A stretch of DNA of 64,000 nucleotides. Origin: a virus. Below, piece by piece: positions 52,116 to 64,000 of this stretch; position 1 is the first letter of the stretch; each line of letters begins with the position of its first letter. Under the pieces are notes generated by a model. That model was not told where the DNA came from. It made no database searches and worked only from the letters and a program-made list of their open reading frames with translations. The DNA lies in IMG/VR virus record IMGVR_UViG_3300021424_002547, positions 35,686-99,685 of that record. One strand, written 5' to 3'. Both the position numbers and the translations under genes were made by a program.

Positions 52116-52958
52116 ATGGACTATTACTCTACTTTAGGTGTTAATAGAAACGCCACCCAAGACGAAATTAAAAAAGCGTATCGCAAGATGGCTATGAACC
52201 ATCATCCTGATCGCGGTGGAGATGAGAAAAAATTTAAACAGATTTCGGAAGCCTATGAAATCTTAAGTGATCCTCAAAAAAAACAGATGGTAGACATGGG
52301 TATAGATCCCAAGAGACAACCGCAAGGTAATGGATTCGGACAAAACGGTCCTTTCGAGTTTCATTTCAATGCTAACAATTTTGATGATATATTTGGTGGA
52401 TTCGGATTTGGTGGATTCGGACACAGACATGTTCAAAGAAACAAAACTATCAGCCTCATGGTGGATCTTACATTAGAAGATGTCTTACAAGGTAAAAATC
52501 TAGATGCAGAAATAGCCATACCTGGAGGAAGGAAAAAGATTATTAATATCGTGATACCGTCTGGAATAGAAGAAGGACAACAGATAAGATATCAAGGAAT
52601 GGGAGATAATAGCATTTCTAACATACCTCCCGGAGATTTAATAGTTAATGTTAGAATCATGCCGCACGGAATGTTTCGACGAGAAGGCGATAACCTAATA
52701 CTAGAAAAATTCATCTCAGCATGGGATGCCATGTTAGGAACAAAAATAGATATTTCTACACTAGACAACAAGTCATTAGAAATCGCTGTACCGGCAGGTA
52801 GCCAGCCCGAAACAGTATTAAGTTGCAGAAACGAAGGATTGCCAAATATGCGTAGCAAGTTAAGAGGTAATCTTTTAGTAAAAATAAAAATTAAAATACC
52901 AAAAATTACATCAACTAAACAGAAAGATCTCGTAGAACAATTGAAAAATGGATTATAA
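52116..52958 (+). CDS. dnaJ: Class B J-domain chaperone (DnaJ/CbpA-like)
   Basis: HPD motif, G/F region, C-terminal domains, no Zn finger. Confidence 0.92.
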
Positions 52959-53442
52959 ACTAGGACCGCATCAAAGCCTTCAACAAGTAAGCACTTCTTG
53001 GGATTTTTCTCGAGACGGTGATTCTGAAAAATTAGAATCTGATCTATGTTATTTTATGCAGAAACATATGGGTATAGGTTTAGCCGCTAATCAAATAGGT
53101 ATTGCTAAACAAATTTTTGTAATGGGCAGCGATAATATTCCGGGATTTCCTAAACCCTTCGCAGTTTTCAATCCAAAAATAATCAGCACAGATCAAGAAA
53201 AAGAAATCTTCAAAGAAGGATGTCTGAGTTTCCCTGGACTTTGGTTGAACGTAAAAAGGCCAAAAAAAATAATAGTGGAGTACCAGAACAGTCGAGGAGA
53301 CATCATAGAAGCAGAAATGGACGGATTAATTTCTAGATGCTTTCAGCATGAATTTGATCATCTCAATGGTATATGTTTCGTTGACATCGTTAGTCCCTTG
53401 AAGTTAAAATTAGCAATACAAAAACTAAGGAAACAAAAATAA
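52948..53442 (+). CDS. def: Peptide deformylase
   Basis: [22 protein letters not shown]. Confidence 0.95.
53381..53410 (+). promoter_or_regulatory. sigma70-like promoter upstream of clpA
   Basis: TTGACA-N18-TAAAAT. Confidence 0.45.
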
Positions 53443-55772
53443 TGATAGAGCCCAGCCAGCACCTGCATAATATCTTTAATACCGCCGTTGAAATAGCCAA
53501 GCAGTTAAATCATGAGTACATCACTATAGAACATCTAGTCTATAGCATCATGAGTGATCAAGAATCGTATGACATGATTTCTAACTTTGGGGCCGATGCT
53601 AATTTTATTAAGACCAATCTAGATCATTATCTAAAAAATAACCTCAAAGAAATCATCTCACAATCTCAGGTAAAGAAACCTAAAAAAACCACTAGTGTTG
53701 AACGTGTGTTGAATCGATGTTTTACACAGGTTTTGTTCAGCGGCAGGCAACGCATGGAGATCGCAGACGTTATTATCAGTGTACTGGCTGAAAAAAACAG
53801 TTTTGGTTATTATTTTCTAAACAAAGGCGGTCTGACTAAAGAAAAATTTGTGAAATATTTCCAAGAAAATGTTATCATAGAAGAAGAACAAGAAAGTATT
53901 CCAGCGACCACGAACAATCAGATAGAAAGAATTCTAAATCAATTCTGCACGAACCTAACCTTACAGGCTAAACAACGTAAGATTGATCCGGTGATAGGAC
54001 GAGACGAAGAATTAGAAAAAATCCAACTGATTCTAGCACGTAGAAATAAATGCAATGTGTTAATGGTAGGAGAACCCGGAGTAGGCAAGACTGCGATCGC
54101 AGAGGGGTTGGCTCGAAAGATTTTCGAGGACAAGGTTCCTAAATTTATCAAAGACCATACAGTCTATACTTTAGATATATCAGCATTATTAGCCGGGTCA
54201 AAGTATCGTGGTGACTTTGAAGAACGAATCAAAGCCGTATTCACCGCACTAGAAAAAAAAGGTAAGATCATTTTATTCATCGACGAAGCACACATGATGC
54301 AGGGTGCAGGGGCCGCTAATCAATCAAGCAACGATATGAGCAATATGCTAAAACCCATATTGACCAAAAAGTCTATGAAAATCATAGCGTCCACTACCTG
54401 GGAAGAATATCGAAAGCACTTTGAAAAAGACCGTGCTTTGATGCGTCGTTTCCAGCGTGTGACCATCGATGAACCCAATGAAGAACTAACTATTAAAATC
54501 TTAAAAGGATTGAAAAAGTATTATGAAAAACATCATGAAGTAAAAATTACCGATGCTGCTATAGATCAGGCTGTGAAACTTTCTATGAAATACATGTCAG
54601 ATAAAAAACTGCCAGATAAAGCCATAGATATCTTAGACTGCGCAGCGGCTCGATATAAACTTAAAGATGACGAAAATATGGAAGGTGTAGAACAGATCGT
54701 AGATATAGAACAGGTTACCTACGAACTCAGTAAGATGATCAACATGCCATTAGAGATTGTTGCTCAGAAAGAAAGCAAAAATCTTTCTGATCTAGAAGGA
54801 AATATGAAATCATCAGTTTTGGGTCAAGATGGAGCTATTGATACACTGCTAGATAAAATATTCGTCAGCCAAGCAGGAATGAAATCACCTAACAAACCTG
54901 TTGGAAGTTTTCTATTCCTAGGACCTACTGGCTGTGGAAAAACTGAAACTGCCAAACAATTAGCAGAAAAGATGGGAATGCAATTAGTTCGATTCGACAT
55001 GAGCGAGTACCAAGAAAAACACTCGGTGGCTCGTCTGATCGGTGCTCCACCGGGCTATGTAGGATACGAAGATAATTCCGGTCAACTGATCACTAAATTA
55101 CAAGAATATCCCAATTGTGTGTTGCTGCTAGATGAAATCGAAAAAAGCCATCCTGATGTTTCTAACATCTTGCTGCAGTTTATGGATAACGGTTTCGTCA
55201 CAGGATCGAATGGCAAACAGGCCGATGGTCGCAACTGTATCCTTATCATGACCAGCAACTTAGGTGCCCGGGACAACGAAAACAACACCATCGGGTTCGG
55301 CGAACTTGAGCGCGAAGGAGAAGATGATAAAGCTATTAAAAAGTTTTTTGCTCCGGAATTTCGCAATCGACTAGATGCAGTAGTGAAATTTGGTAGATTA
55401 AACATCGAAACTGTAGAAAAAATCGTACATAAATTTATCAACGATTTAAACTTCCAACTTAGAGACAAGAATATTGAAATAGTAGCAGATGATAATTCTG
55501 TTAAATGGTTGGCAAAAAACGGATATGATCGAAAAATGGGAGCCAGACCGTTAGCCAGATTGATCGATAATAAAATAAAATCACCGTTGAGTAGAAGGGT
55601 TCTGTTTGGCGATCTCGTCGACGGCGGAAATATACACATCCAACTATCTGGAGAAGAAATCACTTTTACCGTCACTGAACGGGCGAAACCGTTAACAAAA
55701 CAACAGAAAAAATTATTAAAGAGAGGATCTCCTTTAGTGATGGAAGAAAAAATCGAAGATGCACAAACATAG
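53442..55772 (+). CDS. clpA: Clp protease ATP-binding subunit
   Basis: Clp N-domain; two AAA+ modules ([16 protein letters not shown]); IGF ClpP-docking loop; no ClpB middle domain. Confidence 0.93.
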
Positions 55773-56433: not shown

Positions 56434-56802
56434 ATGCCCATCGAAAACACAGTATTATTGTCAAACATAAGCACAGAATCAACTCCCGGAATCTTTTCTT
56501 ATGGAAGCAAAAAAAAGGCCGCTGGTTATCACAAAATCAGTGATGGGCTGCATACAGCGATTTATACCGTGAACAGTTTTTCCGGGACCATAAAAATACA
56601 AGGTACTCTAAATCTGTATCCGGGGGACAGTGATTGGTTTGATATCGATAACACAGAAATAGGTGGAGATAGTTCTGAGATAGGCGGAGCAGATGGATTA
56701 AATTTCACAGTCTCCCGTAATTTTACTGGCAATTTCCTTTGGATCCGTGCAGCATACCACTTAGAGAACGGTATCATAGTAGATCTTAGGTTTAGTTACT
56801 AA
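56434..56802 (+). CDS. Small beta-rich probable virion protein
   Basis: DGLHT, FSGTIKIQGTL, NFTGNFLWIRA; TAAATA-N4-ATG. Confidence 0.55.
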   Translation: MPIENTVLLSNISTESTPGIFSYGSKKKAAGYHKISDGLHTAIYTVNSFSGTIKIQGTLNLYPGDSDWFDIDNTEIGGDSSEIGGADGLNFTVSRNFTGNFLWIRAAYHLENGIIVDLRFSY

Positions 56803-56846
56803 AAAAATATTCACGATAAATATAGTATCACCTCGAGGGAGATACT

Positions 56847-57863
56847 ATGAGAGACCTTTTATCAAAATTAGACGCCATAATCAGCGAAACAGCACTGAAT
56901 CCTAAAGATCCTAAAGCAGACTATGCTGCAAAGAGCAAAGCACTTGACGATCTAGAACGGGATGGACAGACCGATAAAAGTGCCATACAACAGCGAAGAT
57001 TAGATCTAGACAAAGAAGCCAAAACTAAAAACGTCAAAGAAGACACCGTTTTCGAAGTAGGTGACGATTTCGGTATCAGTTTTTCCAAAGATCTCGAAAT
57101 AGCCACAGAAATCGTGGGTTTCGTAGAAGATGGAATCGTTATCGATCTAGATGAACAGGCCCTAGCTGTGTTGGAATCCGAGGGGCTGCTGTTTCTAGAA
57201 GGTGAGTTAGTCAACGAAGAAAAACAAAAAGGTGTTGACGGCAAAGTCTGCTGGAAAGGCTACAAGCGCATGGGCACCAAAATGAAAGGTGGCAAACGTG
57301 TAGACAACTGCGTCAAGGTAGGTGAAGATAATGATGTAGATGAAAGCGGTCTACAATATTACACAGGCAAAAAGAAATACGGCAAAGATGGCATGGCAGC
57401 ATTAGCACAAGCAGGTCGAAAAGGTGCTTCTGAAGAAGAACTAGGGCGCATCAAAGACAAATACAAAAAAGAAGATACAGATATCGAAGAAGCAAAATAT
57501 CCTTTTGCTGGTGCTAAGGTAGGACAAAAAGAAGGTCCTGCAGGACAGTTGAAAGGCAAAGATCCTGCAGGTTATCCTAAAGGAAAACTAGTAGGTGGTG
57601 AAAGTATAGAAGAAGGCATGGACGAAGCCAAATATCAAGGTAGAGAGGTTCCTCTAGGTAAGAAAATGGCCGGTGATGTAAAGAAATCAAAAGTTTATGT
57701 ACGCAAACCAAATGGTAATATTGTCAAGGTAAACTTCGGCGACAAGAAGATGCGCATCAAGAAATCCAACCCCGCTCGTAGGAAATCATTCCGTGCCCGT
57801 CATAACTGTAAAAATCCTGGTCCACGTTGGAAAGCACGTTATTGGTCATGCAGGTCTTGGTAA
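56847..57863 (+). CDS. Modular probable internal head protein ending in a DUF6321-like domain
   Basis: Modules bounded by xxE sites (ISE, VKE, VNEE, VGE, IEEA, MDEA); CWKGY..GTKMKGGKRVDNCV module; KSFRARHNC..ARYWSC C-terminus. Confidence 0.65.
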   Translation: MRDLLSKLDAIISETALNPKDPKADYAAKSKALDDLERDGQTDKSAIQQRRLDLDKEAKTKNVKEDTVFEVGDDFGISFSKDLEIATEIVGFVEDGIVIDLDEQALAVLESEGLLFLEGELVNEEKQKGVDGKVCWKGYKRMGTKMKGGKRVDNCVKVGEDNDVDESGLQYYTGKKKYGKDGMAALAQAGRKGASEEELGRIKDKYKKEDTDIEEAKYPFAGAKVGQKEGPAGQLKGKDPAGYPKGKLVGGESIEEGMDEAKYQGREVPLGKKMAGDVKKSKVYVRKPNGNIVKVNFGDKKMRIKKSNPARRKSFRARHNCKNPGPRWKARYWSCRSW

Positions 57864-57864
57864 T

Positions 57865-58200
57865 ATGAAATTATTAGAAATGTTTAGTCCCATTGGGGCT
57901 CCTAAAGACGATCAACAAGATATTGATTGGTTAGAAGATCTTAAATTTTTTATCGACAATGACGATAAGATGCTCAATCAATTTTTCTTTCCTGCTATAA
58001 AAAAGCACAAGGAGCATCAAGGAAATCCTAATGCATACAAACTGTACATCAGACCGTTGAGTAAATGCAAAGAAGCCTATTGCAAAAAATTTGAAATCGA
58101 GCAACCGGAAGAAAAATTTACAAAAGAAAAGATTATCGAACTAGCCAAATATATCGCTTCAGAACAAGAAAACTTTTTGAAAAAAGGCGATTATAATTAA
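57865..58200 (+). CDS. Hypothetical protein with MKLLEMF N-terminus
   Basis: ATG 1 nt after the previous stop. Confidence 0.6.
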   Translation: MKLLEMFSPIGAPKDDQQDIDWLEDLKFFIDNDDKMLNQFFFPAIKKHKEHQGNPNAYKLYIRPLSKCKEAYCKKFEIEQPEEKFTKEKIIELAKYIASEQENFLKKGDYN

Positions 58201-60656
58201 TGTTATTATCAGAATTATTCGAAGATTCAGTCAAGCATGTTACATTCTGTTTCGGTAGAATGAATCCTCCTACCATAGGTCACAAACAGGTCCTAGATAC
58301 TATGAAATCTCAGGGCGGGGAAATAAAGATATTCGTTAGCCAGAGCCAAGATGCCAAAAAGAATCCTCTAGATTATTCTACCAAGATCAAATTCATCAAG
58401 GCCATGTTTCCAGAATATGCCCAGGATGTGGTAGAAAATTCTAGCCTAAACACCGTGGTCAAGGTGGCCAGTTATCTCTATGATCAGGGATATACTGCTG
58501 CGACATTTGTCGCAGGTAGTGATCGTCTAGACGATATGAAAAAACTACTGGAAGCATATAATGGAGTAGAAGGTAAGAGCCACGGTTATTACAAATTCGA
58601 AGTGCTAGATTTTGCCAGCAGCGGTGAGAGAGAAGACGGTGCTGAAGGTGTTGCAGGTGTTTCAGCTAGTGGTGCCAGAGCGGCGGCAGCTAATGGCGAC
58701 TTGGAATCGTTTAAAGAAGCCACAGGGGCCGGTGAACTAAGCGAAAAGTTATATGCGGCTGTTCGTAAAGGTATGGGCATATCAGAATCATACAAAATCG
58801 CAGAATCCGTTTCTATAGATTCAGCGATAAAGAATATCGTTGCTACAGGTGATAGTGTCGCAAAGACCTATGGCGATCTCAAGACCATGGCGGAGAAGTG
58901 GGTCTATAACAACGGCACGCTCAAAGGATTCCACAGGAATGCCGCAGGTGTAGGTAAACGTTGGTATGACACATTCTTTTGGAACAAGATGGAAAACGAT
59001 CTACGCACACTGCTACAGAAAAATCCCAAGGCCGCAGCGAAGATACAAGACTTTCTCAACATAGAGAAGGACGACAAAGGTCATGTCAGTTTTAACATCA
59101 TCGGACGCAGCCTGCCGAGAATATTAAACGACGTGGGCGAGAAAATGGGCAACGACGATCTCAAGAGATTTGGTGCTAACTGGTTCAAGCGACAGAAAGA
59201 CTACGAAGATTATCTAGGTCGTGTAGAAAAAGAAGTAAACGATGAAGAAGATGATGATGACTTCTCTCCCGCACCTAAACAACCCAAAGACAATGTGGTA
59301 GGCCGTCAGAACGCTGCTGCCGAAGACATAGTAAACCAGATACTCAAGAGTATTGACAAGAAGGCTGCGGGAGAGATACGCAACATCATCGCCAGAGAGC
59401 CTAATAAACTACAGGCCCTGCAGAAAGAGTTAGCGAAACGCAACATCAAGGTAGGCGAATCGATACGCAGGATAAAGGAACAAATCCTCGCCGAACTGCT
59501 CGAACTAACTACAGAATTCGTGAAATTAAATGACGGTAGTTTTGTTCAGATACAATATAGACCGATGTTAAACAGGCAACCTATGCCAGGTTCCGTACAA
59601 ATATCGGTAGCAGATCCAAGAGTCATTCCTAATATCACAACAGTTAGGCCGTTGGCCTCTGCGGGAGCATGGCAGCAGGACGCAATAAACAAAGCAGCAT
59701 CATCTGGACAGTTAAAACAAAAACAATCAGGACAAGGTGTGGCGGAAGGCATCCGTGTGGTAGATCAAGACTACGATCTCGATCAAATCATATTAACTTT
59801 AGATATCGAAGGTCGGAGAGCATCATTTACCTATACTGATTACGATGAGAACTTTGAAAACGCAGAAAGAAAGGATGTGTTTGATCAACTACAGGAAAAA
59901 TCATGGTATAAGGGTTTAGATCATCCTACTAAAATGGAGATCTTAGATGCTGCCTACAAGGCTATAAGAGGTGAAGAACCGAGCGAATACAAACCTACAG
60001 TTGGTGATGAGCCATTAGACATAGACGAAGGTGTCTCGGAAGGCGATTTAGAAGAAGACTGGCGGAAGAAATTGGCCGCTGCGGGCATGGCCGGCATGAT
60101 GGGACTCAGCGGTGCTGCTGGTGCAGCAGATCGTGTACCGGATACTGCCAAAGAACCTATCATAGCTACTGTAGTCATCGACGGTGAAGCGAGGAGATTA
60201 GATCTCACTCCTAAAGGGTTTGACGATGTCAAAGAAGCAGAAAGATTTTTAAAAAAATTCTTGGCGGATCGAGGTATAAAAGATTGGCAGGCCAAGATAG
60301 AACGCAGTAAACCGGGAACAGGCAAGTATGAGAGGTTGACTATCTCAGGCATGGGTGGATTAGAAAGCATACATGAAGCGCCTATAGAGATGGATCCTAG
60401 CGATCCAATGGATCCTATGATCTACGGACACGATCGAGCCAATCCCGGAAAACTGAAATATCGCATGGCAAGAGCGGCCGGACAATTAAAAGATCTATCT
60501 TCGAGAGTAGACGGTGCAAGCGCCAGTGAATGGCAGATGATGGCTCGTCAATTCGAAGAACTGAAGATGAACATGGAACAGATAAGACATGCCTTGGAAG
60601 AACTGGGCAAAGTCAGGAAGAAGGGTGGCATTCGATCGATGGGAATAACAGTATGA
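58200..60656 (+). CDS. HxGH nucleotidyltransferase (cytidyltransferase-like) fused to several C-terminal modules
   Basis: FGRMNPPTIGH, KKNPL, AGSDR, SASGAR; GVAEG and GVSEG junctions. Confidence 0.75.
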   Translation: MLLSELFEDSVKHVTFCFGRMNPPTIGHKQVLDTMKSQGGEIKIFVSQSQDAKKNPLDYSTKIKFIKAMFPEYAQDVVENSSLNTVVKVASYLYDQGYTAATFVAGSDRLDDMKKLLEAYNGVEGKSHGYYKFEVLDFASSGEREDGAEGVAGVSASGARAAAANGDLESFKEATGAGELSEKLYAAVRKGMGISESYKIAESVSIDSAIKNIVATGDSVAKTYGDLKTMAEKWVYNNGTLKGFHRNAAGVGKRWYDTFFWNKMENDLRTLLQKNPKAAAKIQDFLNIEKDDKGHVSFNIIGRSLPRILNDVGEKMGNDDLKRFGANWFKRQKDYEDYLGRVEKEVNDEEDDDDFSPAPKQPKDNVVGRQNAAAEDIVNQILKSIDKKAAGEIRNIIAREPNKLQALQKELAKRNIKVGESIRRIKEQILAELLELTTEFVKLNDGSFVQIQYRPMLNRQPMPGSVQISVADPRVIPNITTVRPLASAGAWQQDAINKAASSGQLKQKQSGQGVAEGIRVVDQDYDLDQIILTLDIEGRRASFTYTDYDENFENAERKDVFDQLQEKSWYKGLDHPTKMEILDAAYKAIRGEEPSEYKPTVGDEPLDIDEGVSEGDLEEDWRKKLAAAGMAGMMGLSGAAGAADRVPDTAKEPIIATVVIDGEARRLDLTPKGFDDVKEAERFLKKFLADRGIKDWQAKIERSKPGTGKYERLTISGMGGLESIHEAPIEMDPSDPMDPMIYGHDRANPGKLKYRMARAAGQLKDLSSRVDGASASEWQMMARQFEELKMNMEQIRHALEELGKVRKKGGIRSMGITV

Positions 60657-61798
60657 AAGCCAAAGATTTTATACCCGCAAGCAAACCTAGAAACTTTGTA
60701 GCCAAGAATCAACAGACCGCAGGCGCTGGTGCACATCGCGACAAGAAGAAAGCGCAGAAACAGGGCTACGAGAAGCACAAAGGCAAAGGTGTCCGGGAAG
60801 GCAGTAAAATCGCTGTAGATCGCAAAACCGGTCGATACTATGATCCAGATAAAGAACTTGACAAACTATTGAACCAACACAAAGCTCAATTTCAAGGTAT
60901 GGCCGCGATTGAAAAAGCACAGAGTTCTGCTAAAAAAGCCAAACCTAAAAAGCCAGATGTCTCAGAAGGCGACGAACCAGATGAGCAGTATCTAGACAAG
61001 GTCATCAGCGATCTATACAAGGATACCTACGGTATGCGTCCAGATCACGAGTTCGGTCGAGAGTGGATGTCAAGCAATTACGAAGAAAAACTTGAGATCT
61101 ATAACAGCATATTAAAAAATCTACACAGTGATATGGATGAAGGTATTGGTGGTACGATCGCCGGTGGCGTGGGTCAGTTCATTGGCAATAAAATCGATCC
61201 TCTACATGGAGAAATCTTAAGAACTCACGGTGAGATGGCTGGTAGAAAAGCAGAATATATTATACGAAAGTATATGCACTTACTACAGAAATCTCTCAAG
61301 AAACAACTAGATTCTGGAGAGAAGGAAGGTGTCCGAGAAGGCAGCGACTGGGGCGAACCTAGAGAGATACTGGAAGATGTTCTACAGACTTTGGAGCGTG
61401 AAGTAGAGTGGCCATTGACCGAGGTAATGGATCCTAGAGAAGTACGCCAACTATTGGCACCTATCATAAAAGCAGTAAATGATAAAATGATGAGTATGAA
61501 AGAAGCACAAGACGACTGGGGCGGTATGAGCCACAGAGAATTCAAGCGTAAAGAATTACAGCATGAACTAGGACATGAAGACGATCCGGACTTTGAACGC
61601 AAGATGCGCCAACAACAGATGGATAAGGATAAAGGCCCGTGGTATATCCGTATCAATGGTAAGATCTACAAGCAGAAGGGCGAAGCCAAAGTGTTCGACT
61701 GGAAAAAAGGTGCTAACAATTATGCCCTAGCCATACTGAAGAACAAGCCGGAGTTGCAAGGTAAAGTCCTGATAACTAAAAATCCCTCGGATCAATGA
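60653..61798 (+). CDS. Modular probable internal head protein
   Basis: Start MKAKDFI (ATGA coupling); GAGAHRDKKK; GVREG x2, DVSEG, MDEG, MKEA junctions. Confidence 0.65.
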   Translation: MKAKDFIPASKPRNFVAKNQQTAGAGAHRDKKKAQKQGYEKHKGKGVREGSKIAVDRKTGRYYDPDKELDKLLNQHKAQFQGMAAIEKAQSSAKKAKPKKPDVSEGDEPDEQYLDKVISDLYKDTYGMRPDHEFGREWMSSNYEEKLEIYNSILKNLHSDMDEGIGGTIAGGVGQFIGNKIDPLHGEILRTHGEMAGRKAEYIIRKYMHLLQKSLKKQLDSGEKEGVREGSDWGEPREILEDVLQTLEREVEWPLTEVMDPREVRQLLAPIIKAVNDKMMSMKEAQDDWGGMSHREFKRKELQHELGHEDDPDFERKMRQQQMDKDKGPWYIRINGKIYKQKGEAKVFDWKKGANNYALAILKNKPELQGKVLITKNPSDQ

Positions 61799-62034
61799 TG
61801 GAAATCGCAGAATTAAAAAGGTTGGCTGGTATCAATGAATTTAAAGGATATGTAAAATACGATCCTGTAAATCCCAACGATGGTAGTAATATCAGCATAA
61901 CTGGTAATGAAAAGGGCGAAATACAGAAAAAAAACAATATAAAACCAGGAACTCCTGAATGGTTCCAACTATGGTTTAGTTTGCCTTACATGACCGGGGA
62001 ACGTCCAGTAGGAGATAAAAAATGGTTGAGATAA
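61795..62034 (+). CDS. Hypothetical protein
   Basis: LKRLAGINE; [13 protein letters not shown]. Confidence 0.6.
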
Positions 62035-62348
62035 CTGAAGCAGCAAAAATAAAGATCATAGATCTGTTGATTGACGAAAACAATCCCAAGTTATTTCTCC
62101 GCACCTTTGTGCAGGGAGGTGGATGTAGCGGTTTCAGTTATGGATTTACTTTTGATGAAGAAGTTAATGAAGATGATTTTGAATTTTCTCTAGATGAAAA
62201 ATATAAGTGTGTTATTGATTCTATGAGTATGCAATACATGACCGGAGCGACAATAGATTATAAAGAAGAACTAATGGGTAGTCAGTTTACCATAAAAAAT
62301 CCAAATGCTGAAACTACCTGCGGATGTGGGAGTAGTTTTTCTATATGA
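62022..62348 (+). CDS. erpA: A-type Fe-S carrier, ErpA-like
   Basis: [26 protein letters not shown]. Confidence 0.88.
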
Positions 62349-62716
62349 GAGCCCGAGAATTCATCAAAGAAGCAAGAAATACACAGGGAGATGTGGCCTC
62401 TGGTTTCGATCCAATCCAGAGCGATCCTCTGACCTTGACCTATGTGTTTCCTACTATGCCTGCGAACAATCCTTACAGGACCTACAGGTTCAGCATGGCC
62501 GTGGCCAATCATGATGCAGAACCTATGGAAAACCCTACCAGCCAGATGGCCATGATGTCGGCCTATACCAAAGAAGAAGATGACATGCTGAAGAAAGCCA
62601 TGAAGAAAACCGGCGATCGTGGACACGTTGTAGGCAACCAAGGCAGTAAAGAACCAAAAGACACCGGTCATCACAGTCCTGTGGCACGGGCCAAACGCAA
62701 TCGCTGGGGAGTGTAA
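62345..62716 (+). CDS. Probable internal head protein
   Basis: [10 protein letters not shown]-terminus. Confidence 0.6.
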
Positions 62717-62719
62717 GCA

Positions 62720-63895
62720 GTGAGAGCCCGAGAATTCGTCATCGAGAAGAAACGCCGCAAGCGTAGACCACGGTGGGCTGCCTATGGTCCAGGACCCTAC
62801 GGCGGTTATGGCTACTACGCAGGTTATAGTGGAGACGGCGGAGGCGGTGATGGCGGAGTAGGTGAAGCCAGCTATCCCGGCAACGTCGGAGCCATGGAGA
62901 TAACTAAATTCTTTAGGATAGCAGGTCCTAAAGAAAAAGATCTGTTGAAAGTGTTGATACAACGCAAAGACTACAGCCGAGCCTGGGCATTGATACAGGG
63001 TATCACGGGTGTAAAACTACAGGGACGAGAATTCCAAACCGACGAAGGATGGCGAGATACACTGGCTGGATTGGCGTTAGGTACCGGTGTAGCCATGGGC
63101 AGCCCTGCTGATGCTAAAACTAATGTAGAACGAGTTGTCGTATCACCGGGACAAACTGTGTATTCTATAGCCAAAGCATTTGATACTACCCCGGAAGTCA
63201 TTCAAAAATTAAACAAATTAGATAAAGATTTTACTATCAAACCCGATCAGGTTATAAAAGTTCCTAAGATAGATACAGTTGAAATTCCTTCTAAAGAAAA
63301 AAAATCTATTGATAGTAAAAAATCTGTAGAAAAGAAAGATGAAAAGAAATCCGAAAAGAAAATAGACACCAACAAAACTCTAACCGGAAAACCTTTTGAA
63401 GCATTGCTAACTCGAACCGCTCGGTCGTCCGGAATCACAGATCCTATCGAACTGGCGGCTTTCCTAGCCCAGACTTCTGTAGAGACTGGAAGATTCAAAC
63501 ACATGAGAGAAGTCGGCAACAAAGAAAGGATCGAAAGGATGTACGATCTAAAATTCAACCGACAAGGTGCTAAGATACTAGGCAATACCAAACCCGGAGA
63601 CGGCTGGAGATATCGAGGTAGAGGATTTATACAATTGACTGGCAGAGACAATTATACCAGAGCCGGCAGAGATCTCGGCCTCGATCTAGCCAAAGATCCC
63701 GATCTAGTGGCCAGAGAGCCTGAAGTCGCGGCCAGAGCCAGCGTATGGTATTGGAAAACCCACGTTAGACCACAGGTAAACGATTTTAGAGATACTGCTG
63801 CAGTTACCAAAGCGGTTCAAGGGGGGTCGTCTGCGCTGGATCGTAGAGAACGCGAATTCCAAAATTTTAAACAATTACAATTGGCTAAAATATGA
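62720..63895 (+). CDS. Polyprotein ending in a LysM plus GH19 peptidoglycan hydrolase
   Basis: LysM VSPGQTVYSIAKAFDTTPEVIQKLN; GH19 AQTSVET, YRGRGFIQLTGRDNY; MRAREFVIE N-terminus (GTG start). Confidence 0.85.
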   Translation: MRAREFVIEKKRRKRRPRWAAYGPGPYGGYGYYAGYSGDGGGGDGGVGEASYPGNVGAMEITKFFRIAGPKEKDLLKVLIQRKDYSRAWALIQGITGVKLQGREFQTDEGWRDTLAGLALGTGVAMGSPADAKTNVERVVVSPGQTVYSIAKAFDTTPEVIQKLNKLDKDFTIKPDQVIKVPKIDTVEIPSKEKKSIDSKKSVEKKDEKKSEKKIDTNKTLTGKPFEALLTRTARSSGITDPIELAAFLAQTSVETGRFKHMREVGNKERIERMYDLKFNRQGAKILGNTKPGDGWRYRGRGFIQLTGRDNYTRAGRDLGLDLAKDPDLVAREPEVAARASVWYWKTHVRPQVNDFRDTAAVTKAVQGGSSALDRREREFQNFKQLQLAKI

Positions 63896-64000
63896 AAGCT
63901 CACGAATTCATAACTGAAAATTTTGCAGACGGTAAACGCAAAGGCAAGAGCCGTCCAGGGCGTGTAAAACGTTCAGGAGCCAGTTGTAATGGTAGCGGGG
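63892..64000 (+). CDS. Probable internal head protein (3' truncated by window edge)
   Basis: MKAHEFITENFADGKRKGKSRPGRVKRSGASC... Confidence 0.6.
   Translation, partial: MKAHEFITENFADGKRKGKSRPGRVKRSGASCNGSG

Follow-up and report, generated by a model that had tools for sequence, protein, structure and literature searches.

The 64,000-nucleotide (nt) stretch analysed here, referred to as the window, comprises bases 35686–99685 of a 99,685-bp IMG/VR virus contig (IMGVR_UViG_3300021424_002547) and ends in a run of genes, here called A–I, that are closely packed on the plus strand, several of their start codons overlapping the preceding stop. Most of the encoded proteins begin with a short leader resembling the capsid-targeting sequence of phage T4, and the long ones consist of small unrelated modules that abut at a recurring hydrophobic-x-Glu sequence, which we call a joint. 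The source is, roughly, an uncultured marine T4-like jumbo phage of ~350 kb: the contig was rated 28% complete by CheckV, which implies a genome of about that size, and T4-type baseplate, tail-fibre and clamp-loader genes are present on it. No head genes were found on this 28% complete fragment, and the cluster itself is truncated at the contig end (position 64000). The genes, with predicted cuts marked ↓, are:

56847–57863, plus strand: gene A, 338 amino acids (aa); a helical leader, MRDLLSKLDAIISE, then modules bounded by E14, E65, E160/E166, (E215) and E260
57865–58200, plus strand: gene B, 111 aa; leader MKLLEMF; matches no family
58200–60656, plus strand: gene C; leader MLLSELFE (L-F-E↓D) at 58200–58223
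60653–61798, plus strand: gene D; starts MKAKDFI, inside a longer mechanical open reading frame (ORF) beginning at 60530
61795–62034, plus strand: gene E, 79 aa; no leader and no family; kept in relatives
62022–62348, plus strand: gene F, an ErpA/IscA-type Fe-S (iron–sulfur) insertion protein; no leader
62345–62716, plus strand: gene G, 123 aa; leader MRAREFIKE↓A and one module without known family
62720–63895, plus strand: gene H, 391 aa; leader MRAREFVIE; GTG start with GGGAG 8 nt upstream
63892 to the contig end (64000), plus strand: gene I; leader MKAHEFITE↓N and a basic peptide; incomplete

At ATGA, the stop codon of C overlaps the start codon of D. Complete orthologues of gene I measure 66–67 aa in the relatives L002 and L003; in L002, which is 82% identical, the run goes on with I (67 aa) and two further genes.

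An initial annotation, made from the sequence alone, had proposed that successive genes at this locus carry related starts in the manner of T4 internal proteins. All of the starts that it quoted are present, at A, B, C, D, G, H and I; the succession of tagged genes holds for A–D and G–I, with E and F standing in the run without a leader. The strict pattern M-[KR]-x-[KRHQ]-[ED]-F-[IVL]-x-[ED] occurs three times in the 99,685-bp contig (G, H and I), each time in the cluster, where ~0.0004 occurrences would be expected from composition. Leaders end in x-x-E in A (IISE14), C (LFE8), G (IKE9), H (VIE9) and I (ITE9), and the window's leaders keep the Phe/Ile pair before x-E, with A or R in place of the T4 Tyr4. 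The same starts recur in relatives: 93 of the 120 homologues listed for D begin M-[KR]-x-x-[DE]-hydrophobic, though their cargo differs, B orthologues begin MLLKEMF or MLLNEFF, and polyproteins homologous to C begin M-[LK]-L-x-E-L-F-E-[AD]. The T4 targeting sequence comprises 10 residues, with determinants at positions 4 and 7 that are aromatic or hydrophobic in IPIII (PMC9026906); the Kyanoviridae starts MKKFKQYIDE and MKNFSSFLTE fit this pattern (aromatic residue at 4, hydrophobic residues at 7 and 8, Glu at 10).

The joints that had been quoted were likewise all found: A has VGE, IEEA and MDEA; C has GVAEG, GVSEG, VGE and IHEA; and D has GVREG (twice), DVSEG and MDEG. The motif [GD]V.EG has five copies in ~30,000 aa of plus-strand ORFs, confined to C and D. 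More broadly, A, C and D together contain 12.0 copies of [ILVM].E[GAS] per 1000 aa, versus 2.5 for those ORFs of at least 100 aa that lie on the contig upstream of the cluster (~5-fold; Poisson P = 4e-8). In an alignment of 34 sequences, some of which contain entire cassettes that others lack, conservation of E229 of D is at least 90%. Among the 120 homologues listed for A, E14, E65, E160 and E166 are conserved in 92–98%, and E260-A261, which lies beside a variable cassette (216–259), in 100%; E215 is not conserved. The quoted joints exceed what chance would give; one of them, the IEE↓A site of A, is not conserved in homologues.

An AlphaFold2 model of D (mean predicted local distance difference test score, pLDDT, of 61) consists of confident helical or small alpha/beta pieces, and its low-pLDDT stretches (1–52, 94–109, 158–193, 218–233 and 286–294) contain or abut all five sites, so that the joints of D are predicted to lie in or beside flexible or disordered linkers. 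When this model was compared with the PDB by Foldseek, nothing matched at E ≤ 0.001; with several modules and so low a mean pLDDT, it is a poor query.

The modules of D are:

60653–60799, plus strand: D module 1, the leader MKAKDFIPA and a basic DUF7230 peptide ending GVRE49, isoelectric point (pI) 10.5
60800–61798, plus strand: D modules 2–6, residues 50–105, 106–163, 164–229, 230–284 and 285–381, with bounds DVSE105, MDE163, GVRE229 and MKE284

Module 1 matches phrog_1359 and, slightly below the cut-off, PF23876 (DUF7230; E = 1.1e-5, residues 11–47). A collection of 5.8 billion proteins yielded 449 homologues of D, most of which span 15–75% of it, at identities of up to 84%. The boundaries of their BLAST alignments pile up at 47–52, 101–112, 154–166, 224–238 and 282–295, that is, at E49, E105, E163, E229 and E284, and the order of modules differs from that of D in the homologues P0014 and P0064. 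When all pairs were compared, 33% of 17,529 internal breakpoints fell within 5 aa of a joint motif versus 12.3 ± 0.8% with randomised motif positions, a contrast to be read with the caution that these breakpoints are non-independent and that alignments tend to end at conserved motifs. Right-hand breakpoints peak exactly on the Glu. In a list of junction peaks compiled without reference to the motif, [VMIL]-x-E-[GAS] stands at nearly all peaks, and one and the same module is preceded by differing versions of the joint.

The modules of C are:

58224–58787, plus strand: C module 1, residues 9–196, an HxGH nucleotidyltransferase ending GISE, with breakpoints at 196/197
58788–60377, plus strand: C modules 2–5, residues 197–420, 421–516, 517–614 and 615–726, with bounds VGE420, GVAE516, IDE610/GVSE614 and IHE726
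60378–60656, plus strand: C module 6, residues 727–818, a conserved C-terminal module

Here too the breakpoints cluster, at 196/197, 420–422, 512–516, 607–617 and 722–731. The cleanest case comes from a syntenic relative, G004, whose C orthologue has 324 aa and matches only residues 1 to ~200 (80% identity) and 717–816 (77% identity) of C; module 6 aligns with its residues 191–290, at 77% identity. Four modules of C (2–5) therefore form a cassette that lies exactly between ISE↓ and IHE↓A and is absent from the G004 orthologue. The coincidence of homology breakpoints with x-x-E sites, which the initial annotation had named as a check on its proposal, is thus observed on both D and C. Module 1 of C matches PF01467 (cytidylyltransferase-like, residues 17–120; E = 1.5e-7) and phrog_3041 (E = 1.2e-47). 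A PDB sequence search with it gave only a weak match to an uncharacterised protein, and an identity as nicotinamide mononucleotide (NMN)/nicotinic acid mononucleotide (NaMN) adenylyltransferase was rejected, the NCBIfam models scoring far below their cut-offs; the module can therefore be named to superfamily only. Homologues of C carry other domains as well, namely pterin-4a-carbinolamine dehydratase, HD, sigma-70 region 4 and several DUFs.

Protein A, which has at least 7992 homologues, is matched by different PHROG families at 9–67, 64–169, 108–214 and 257–338, and the ends at 67, 169, 214 and 257 coincide with the predicted sites at 65, 166, 215 and 256–260. One of its modules is listed separately:

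57627–57860, plus strand: last module of A, a very basic Cys-containing peptide of 78 aa, pI 11.3

In protein H, the leader is followed by a poly-basic peptide rich in Gly and Tyr that ends at GVGE49 and by a 60-aa module that ends at TDE109; behind these come a hydrophobic signal-like stretch, LysM (PF01476, E = 3.5e-11) and a GH19 muramidase/chitinase domain (PF00182, E = 1.1e-14). H has sites at E9, E49 and E109; it also matches the endolysin family phrog_181 (E = 4.7e-42). The fragments predicted from all of these sites measure 40–283 aa, and many are strongly basic (pI 9.5–11.3) or acidic (pI 4.2–4.5). By family matches (PHROG, Pfam) and by breakpoints, the long proteins are thus strings of unrelated modules and the leaders sit on unrelated cargo, as had been claimed; the nucleotidyltransferase, basic peptides and hydrolase named among the modules correspond to PF01467 in C, to peptides of pI up to 11.3 and to the LysM-GH19 part of H.

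Signal-peptide-like modules occur in C (residues 620–645, 60057–60134), where module 5 begins with such a hydrophobic stretch, and in H (residues 110–135, 63047–63124). They begin with [GDN]-W-[RK] (basic W-R-K-K), continue with a hydrophobic core rich in Ala and Gly, and often finish in an A-x-A-like sequence; all 27 distinct copies start right after a joint Glu, with [ILVMFA]-x-E as the joint in 24 of them. This module immediately precedes LysM-GH19 in H and its relatives.

The end of a leader is equivalent to an internal joint. Modules that directly follow the leader in one protein recur inside others right behind [ILVMFA]-x-E in 86 of 232 unique contexts (37%), versus a background of 2.6%. 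In the joint logo, P3 is V/M/L/I, P1 is Glu and P1' is G/T/N/S/A; in 80 joint contexts, P3 was V 28, M 19, L 17, I 11 and A 5 times. A complete leader (MKAKEFIP...) stands in mid-protein in the metagenomic homologues P0036, P0213 and P0222, which are in-frame fusions of neighbouring tagged genes, and this suggests how joints arise.

T4-type proteases cut C-terminal to Glu, with a hydrophobic residue at P3 (PMC9026906, PMC5694885). We infer a gp21-type protease in the source phage from G004, a 134.8-kb contig of the same ~350-kb class. Its locus L011 has the gene order of the window (DnaJ, ClpA-like, two small genes, B, C, D, ErpA and further tagged genes), the ClpA-like proteins of the two share 77% identity, and G004 encodes a T4 portal (6e-111), a Peptidase_S77/gp21 protease (3e-24) and a gp23 capsid protein (3e-100). 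The joint rule extends to the head proteins of G004: in the capsid protein, LLE↓S, LLE↓G and LAE↓S precede the Gp23 domain, which begins at residue 53, and the protein in scaffold position contains nine joint motifs within its 364 aa. A small B-like gene, whose product starts MLLNEFFY, lies between portal and protease. The type of protease that had been proposed to act on the cluster's products is encoded by this close syntenic relative.

Evidence on the virion comes from cultured Kyanoviridae (Melnitz, C48C1 and S-CREM2), which carry comparable clusters. Gene 18 of Melnitz is a 650-aa chain that starts MKKFSEIIE↓A, with the nucleotidyltransferase first and the basic module of A last. In CsCl-purified virions of S-CREM2, mass spectrometry detected the cytidylyltransferase gp154 and its neighbours gp155, gp156 and gp160, and the authors suggest that these four are encapsidated (PMC10665884). 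We found that gp154 starts MKNFSSFLTE↓A and is 37% identical to residues 18–200 of C (E = 1e-27), and that gp160 matches residues 121–195 of A as well as the terminal modules of many polyproteins. Through these homologues, the S-CREM2 data support a virion location for two module families; they inform on presence in the virion, not on cleavage.

We consider it probable, at roughly 0.6, that the locus is a late-expressed run of capsid-cargo genes of a T4-like jumbo phage, encoding polyproteins that would be loaded by their leaders and cut at their joints by a gp21-type protease. The short N-terminal leader of the T4 capsid-targeting type (8–14 residues, usually ending hydrophobic-x-Glu) would address each product to the prohead core. 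A, C, D and H would be chains of small unrelated modules, 40–220 aa in size (an HxGH nucleotidyltransferase, LysM-GH19, very basic peptides and helical domains) connected by flexible linkers of [V/M/L/I]-x-E followed by G, A, S or T, and a gp21-type (Peptidase_S77) prohead protease would cut after each joint Glu. A single leader may thereby load several independent proteins, which would be retained in the head and leave it with the DNA. It is this series of targeting, cutting, retention, ejection and fragment function that we infer for the window, a gp21 protease and the virion presence of homologous modules being documented in relatives (G004 and S-CREM2, respectively). In evolution, modules would be gained, lost and reordered at joints, and neighbouring tagged genes would fuse, a former leader becoming an internal joint. 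Alternatively, certain modules, for example the basic peptides, might bind DNA or form part of the core.

Several observations weigh against the proposal. B and D have leaders without a final x-x-E, the leaders of the window count one residue fewer than the T4 sequence and have no aromatic residue at position 4, and some joint residues are atypical (TDE in H, and K at P1' of the site at residue 9 of H). No protease gene is present on the 99.7-kb contig (28% complete), whereas the lack of a PF03420 match on this 28% fragment carries no weight, control genomes having given no match either. The last module of A also exists as a stand-alone gene in pelagiphage podoviruses and siphoviruses, Roseobacter phages, Flavobacterium phages and Nitrosopumilaceae spindle-shaped viruses, carriers that lack a T4-type head protease; modules are therefore not intrinsically head cargo. 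H could simply be an endolysin. The cautions attached above to the breakpoint count and to the S-CREM2 mass spectrometry belong here too, and part of the conservation of joints could reflect recombination, since they share similarity at the DNA level (GGTGTC nnn GAAGGC).

Two alternatives survive these considerations about equally well, both of them unlikely. One of them takes the products to be prohead core or scaffold-like polyproteins, loaded and cut as proposed, whose pieces serve assembly or DNA condensation and are not delivered as effectors; most pieces would be expelled or kept as counter-ions, like T4 gp22 and its internal peptides. That many fragments are very basic or very acidic, short and helical would fit such a role, as would the equally dense joints of the scaffold-position protein of G004, the B-like gene between its portal and protease, and the fact that A belongs to a highly conserved, very abundant family that is not fast-changing. 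C and D, however, show fast module turnover, and the enzyme modules (the nucleotidyltransferase and LysM-GH19 here; pterin dehydratase, HD and sigma-70 region 4 in homologues) have no obvious role in assembly; moreover, the nucleotidyltransferase homologue stays in mature S-CREM2 virions (PMC10665884).

The other supposes ordinary multidomain proteins that are not cut, their Glu linkers being flexible spacers or recombination microhomology and their shared N-termini reflecting duplication or constraints on translation start. The nucleotide sequence common to the joints and the 15 nt shared by G and H after the start codon would fit it, and in other phages polyvalent proteins can enter the head without being cut (PMC5512222). 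Against this, P2, P4 and P1' vary in distant homologues, where V/M/L/I at P3 and the Glu persist, and the ends of the leaders and the capsid and scaffold proteins of G004 obey the same rule. Codon identity does not help this alternative: 22 of 23 joint Glu codons are GAA, which is uninformative, GAA merely being the usual Glu codon (81%; 328 GAA versus 76 GAG).

An addition to the cargo model, which we hold to be doubtful, is that cutting unmasks function, the new N-termini acting as export or membrane-insertion signals only once the pieces have arrived in the next host; in this way, a wall hydrolase or membrane protein that had been injected could be re-targeted to the envelope. Combined with the fusion of tagged genes, this would amount to a plug-in system by which delivered effectors are built and activated. 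Least likely of all, and to be given little weight, is that the products are not head cargo, act in the infected cell or are exported or processed otherwise, with H as a signal-anchored endolysin and DnaJ, deformylase and ClpA handling the products: the signal-peptide-like stretches behind joints in C and H, the DnaJ and ClpA-like genes syntenic with the cluster in the window, L002, L003 and L011, and the endolysin match of H in PHROGs speak for it, but those stretches are internal, mostly ~110–1140 residues from the start and usable only after a cut, homologues are present in purified virions (PMC10665884), and the likeness of the leader is to the T4 targeting sequence rather than to an export signal.

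As to the other features of the run and its surroundings, gene F matches PF01521 (E = 8.5e-18) and the NCBIfam ErpA equivalog (154 bits; cut-off 117), and, though inside the run, is probably not cargo. The position of this ErpA-type gene within the cargo run is conserved in relatives. Gene G is absent between F (ErpA) and H in L002 (L002:11516-11580), and G and H have 15 identical nucleotides in common after the start codon; together these observations suggest gene gain or loss by recombination at the leader. Directly upstream of the cluster, at 52116–55772, lie genes for DnaJ (J and C-terminal domains), peptide deformylase and a ClpA/ClpB-type double AAA+ protein. The DnaJ and ClpA-like genes hold their position beside the cargo cluster in L002, L003 and L011, the deformylase lying between them in the window, and a link to cargo folding or loading is possible. 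A 122-aa protein (56434–56802), also directly upstream of the cluster and preceded by GATAAATA, matches a PHROG virion structural protein (E = 2.6e-6). No match to the region was returned by Megablast from 50,697 cultured phage genomes, and tblastn with D against cultured phage genomes gave none either; the modules of D are therefore known only from metagenomes.

A promoter-like feature precedes gene A:

56816–56823, plus strand: late-promoter-like GATAAATA, 31 nt upstream of gene A and followed by GAGGGAGA (ribosome-binding site)

T4-like cyanophages use a NATAAATA late-promoter motif, and by its likeness to this motif GATAAATA upstream of A is a candidate late promoter. ATAAATA occurs nine times on the plus strand of the window (at 474, 4600, 5886, 16649, 18123, 41490, 47764, 56423 and 56816) and once on the minus strand; eight of the nine plus-strand copies sit 11–40 nt before an ORF start. 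The classical T4 late promoter, TATAAATA, is depleted (1 found versus 7.2 expected) and is therefore not used here. A scan for sigma-70 promoters and terminators was at chance level only.

If the proposed reading is true, a large, mostly unannotated pool of small proteins would reach the cell before phage gene expression, and such proteins would be natural candidates for counter-defence, host takeover and envelope functions. The combination of leader and [VMLI]-x-E joints would provide a simple rule for finding virion cargo in metagenomes, and natural design rules for multi-protein loading of T4-type capsids. In the searchable literature we found no description of protease-jointed module chains; searches on DUF7230, on "cytitidyltransferase" with virion and on polyprotein with prohead protease likewise returned no prior description.

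Among known systems, classical viral polyproteins differ in that they encode a protease domain within the polyprotein; scans with Pfam, PHROGs and NCBIfam identified no peptidase family in A, C, D or H. The scaffold gp22 and the core proteins gp67 and gp68 of T4 are cut at many L/I-x-E sites into small peptides, but they are single-function assembly proteins, whereas the chains described here join unrelated domains, including enzymes. In the jumbo phages phiKZ, 201phi2-1 and SPN3US, head-internal proteins are cut after Glu, sometimes multiply, by a gp21-related protease, and paralogues share N-termini (PMC5694885). However, P3 is small in phages of the phiKZ/SPN3US type ((S/A/G)-x-E or A-x-E) and propeptides measure ~100 residues, whereas here P3 is V/M/L/I as in T4, leaders have 8–14 residues and modules shuffle.

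The polyvalent proteins of Iyer et al. (2017, PMC5512222) also combine many unrelated domains in one mosaic polypeptide, with predicted head packaging, delivery to the host and a proposed proteolytic release of domains. They are defined by 2–15 unrelated domains; C has six modules plus leader and D has six, and the homologues combine PF01467, PF01329, PF19782, PF00182, PF01476, PF13328, PF01966, PF04545 and PF23876. Polyvalent proteins, however, are built round MuF/portal fusions and zincin-like peptidase, ART and ParB-like domains, and their processing is proposed to be autoproteolytic. None of the signature domains (MuF/portal fusion, zincin-like peptidase, ART, DdrB-ParB) was found in the window's proteins or in the precomputed Pfam lists of their homologues; here the modules are much smaller, and the punctuation fits a trans-acting prohead protease.

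The closest parallel is provided by the T4 internal proteins IPI, IPII, IPIII and Alt, to which scans with Pfam, PHROGs and NCBIfam gave no homology. In both systems a short leader ending hydrophobic-x-Glu precedes unrelated, often basic cargo, the genes are clustered and variable between relatives, the lineage has a T4-type Peptidase_S77, and the cutting rule, predicted in the present case, is C-terminal to Glu (PMC9026906, PMC5694885). The window's leader differs in being one residue shorter and in lacking the aromatic residue at position 4, and the T4 proteins carry a single cargo with at most an extra trimming site, whereas up to six or seven modules follow one leader here. The T4 capsid-targeting sequence is known for the loading of single proteins; at this locus its logic appears to have been extended to multi-cargo chains that are swapped at protease joints.

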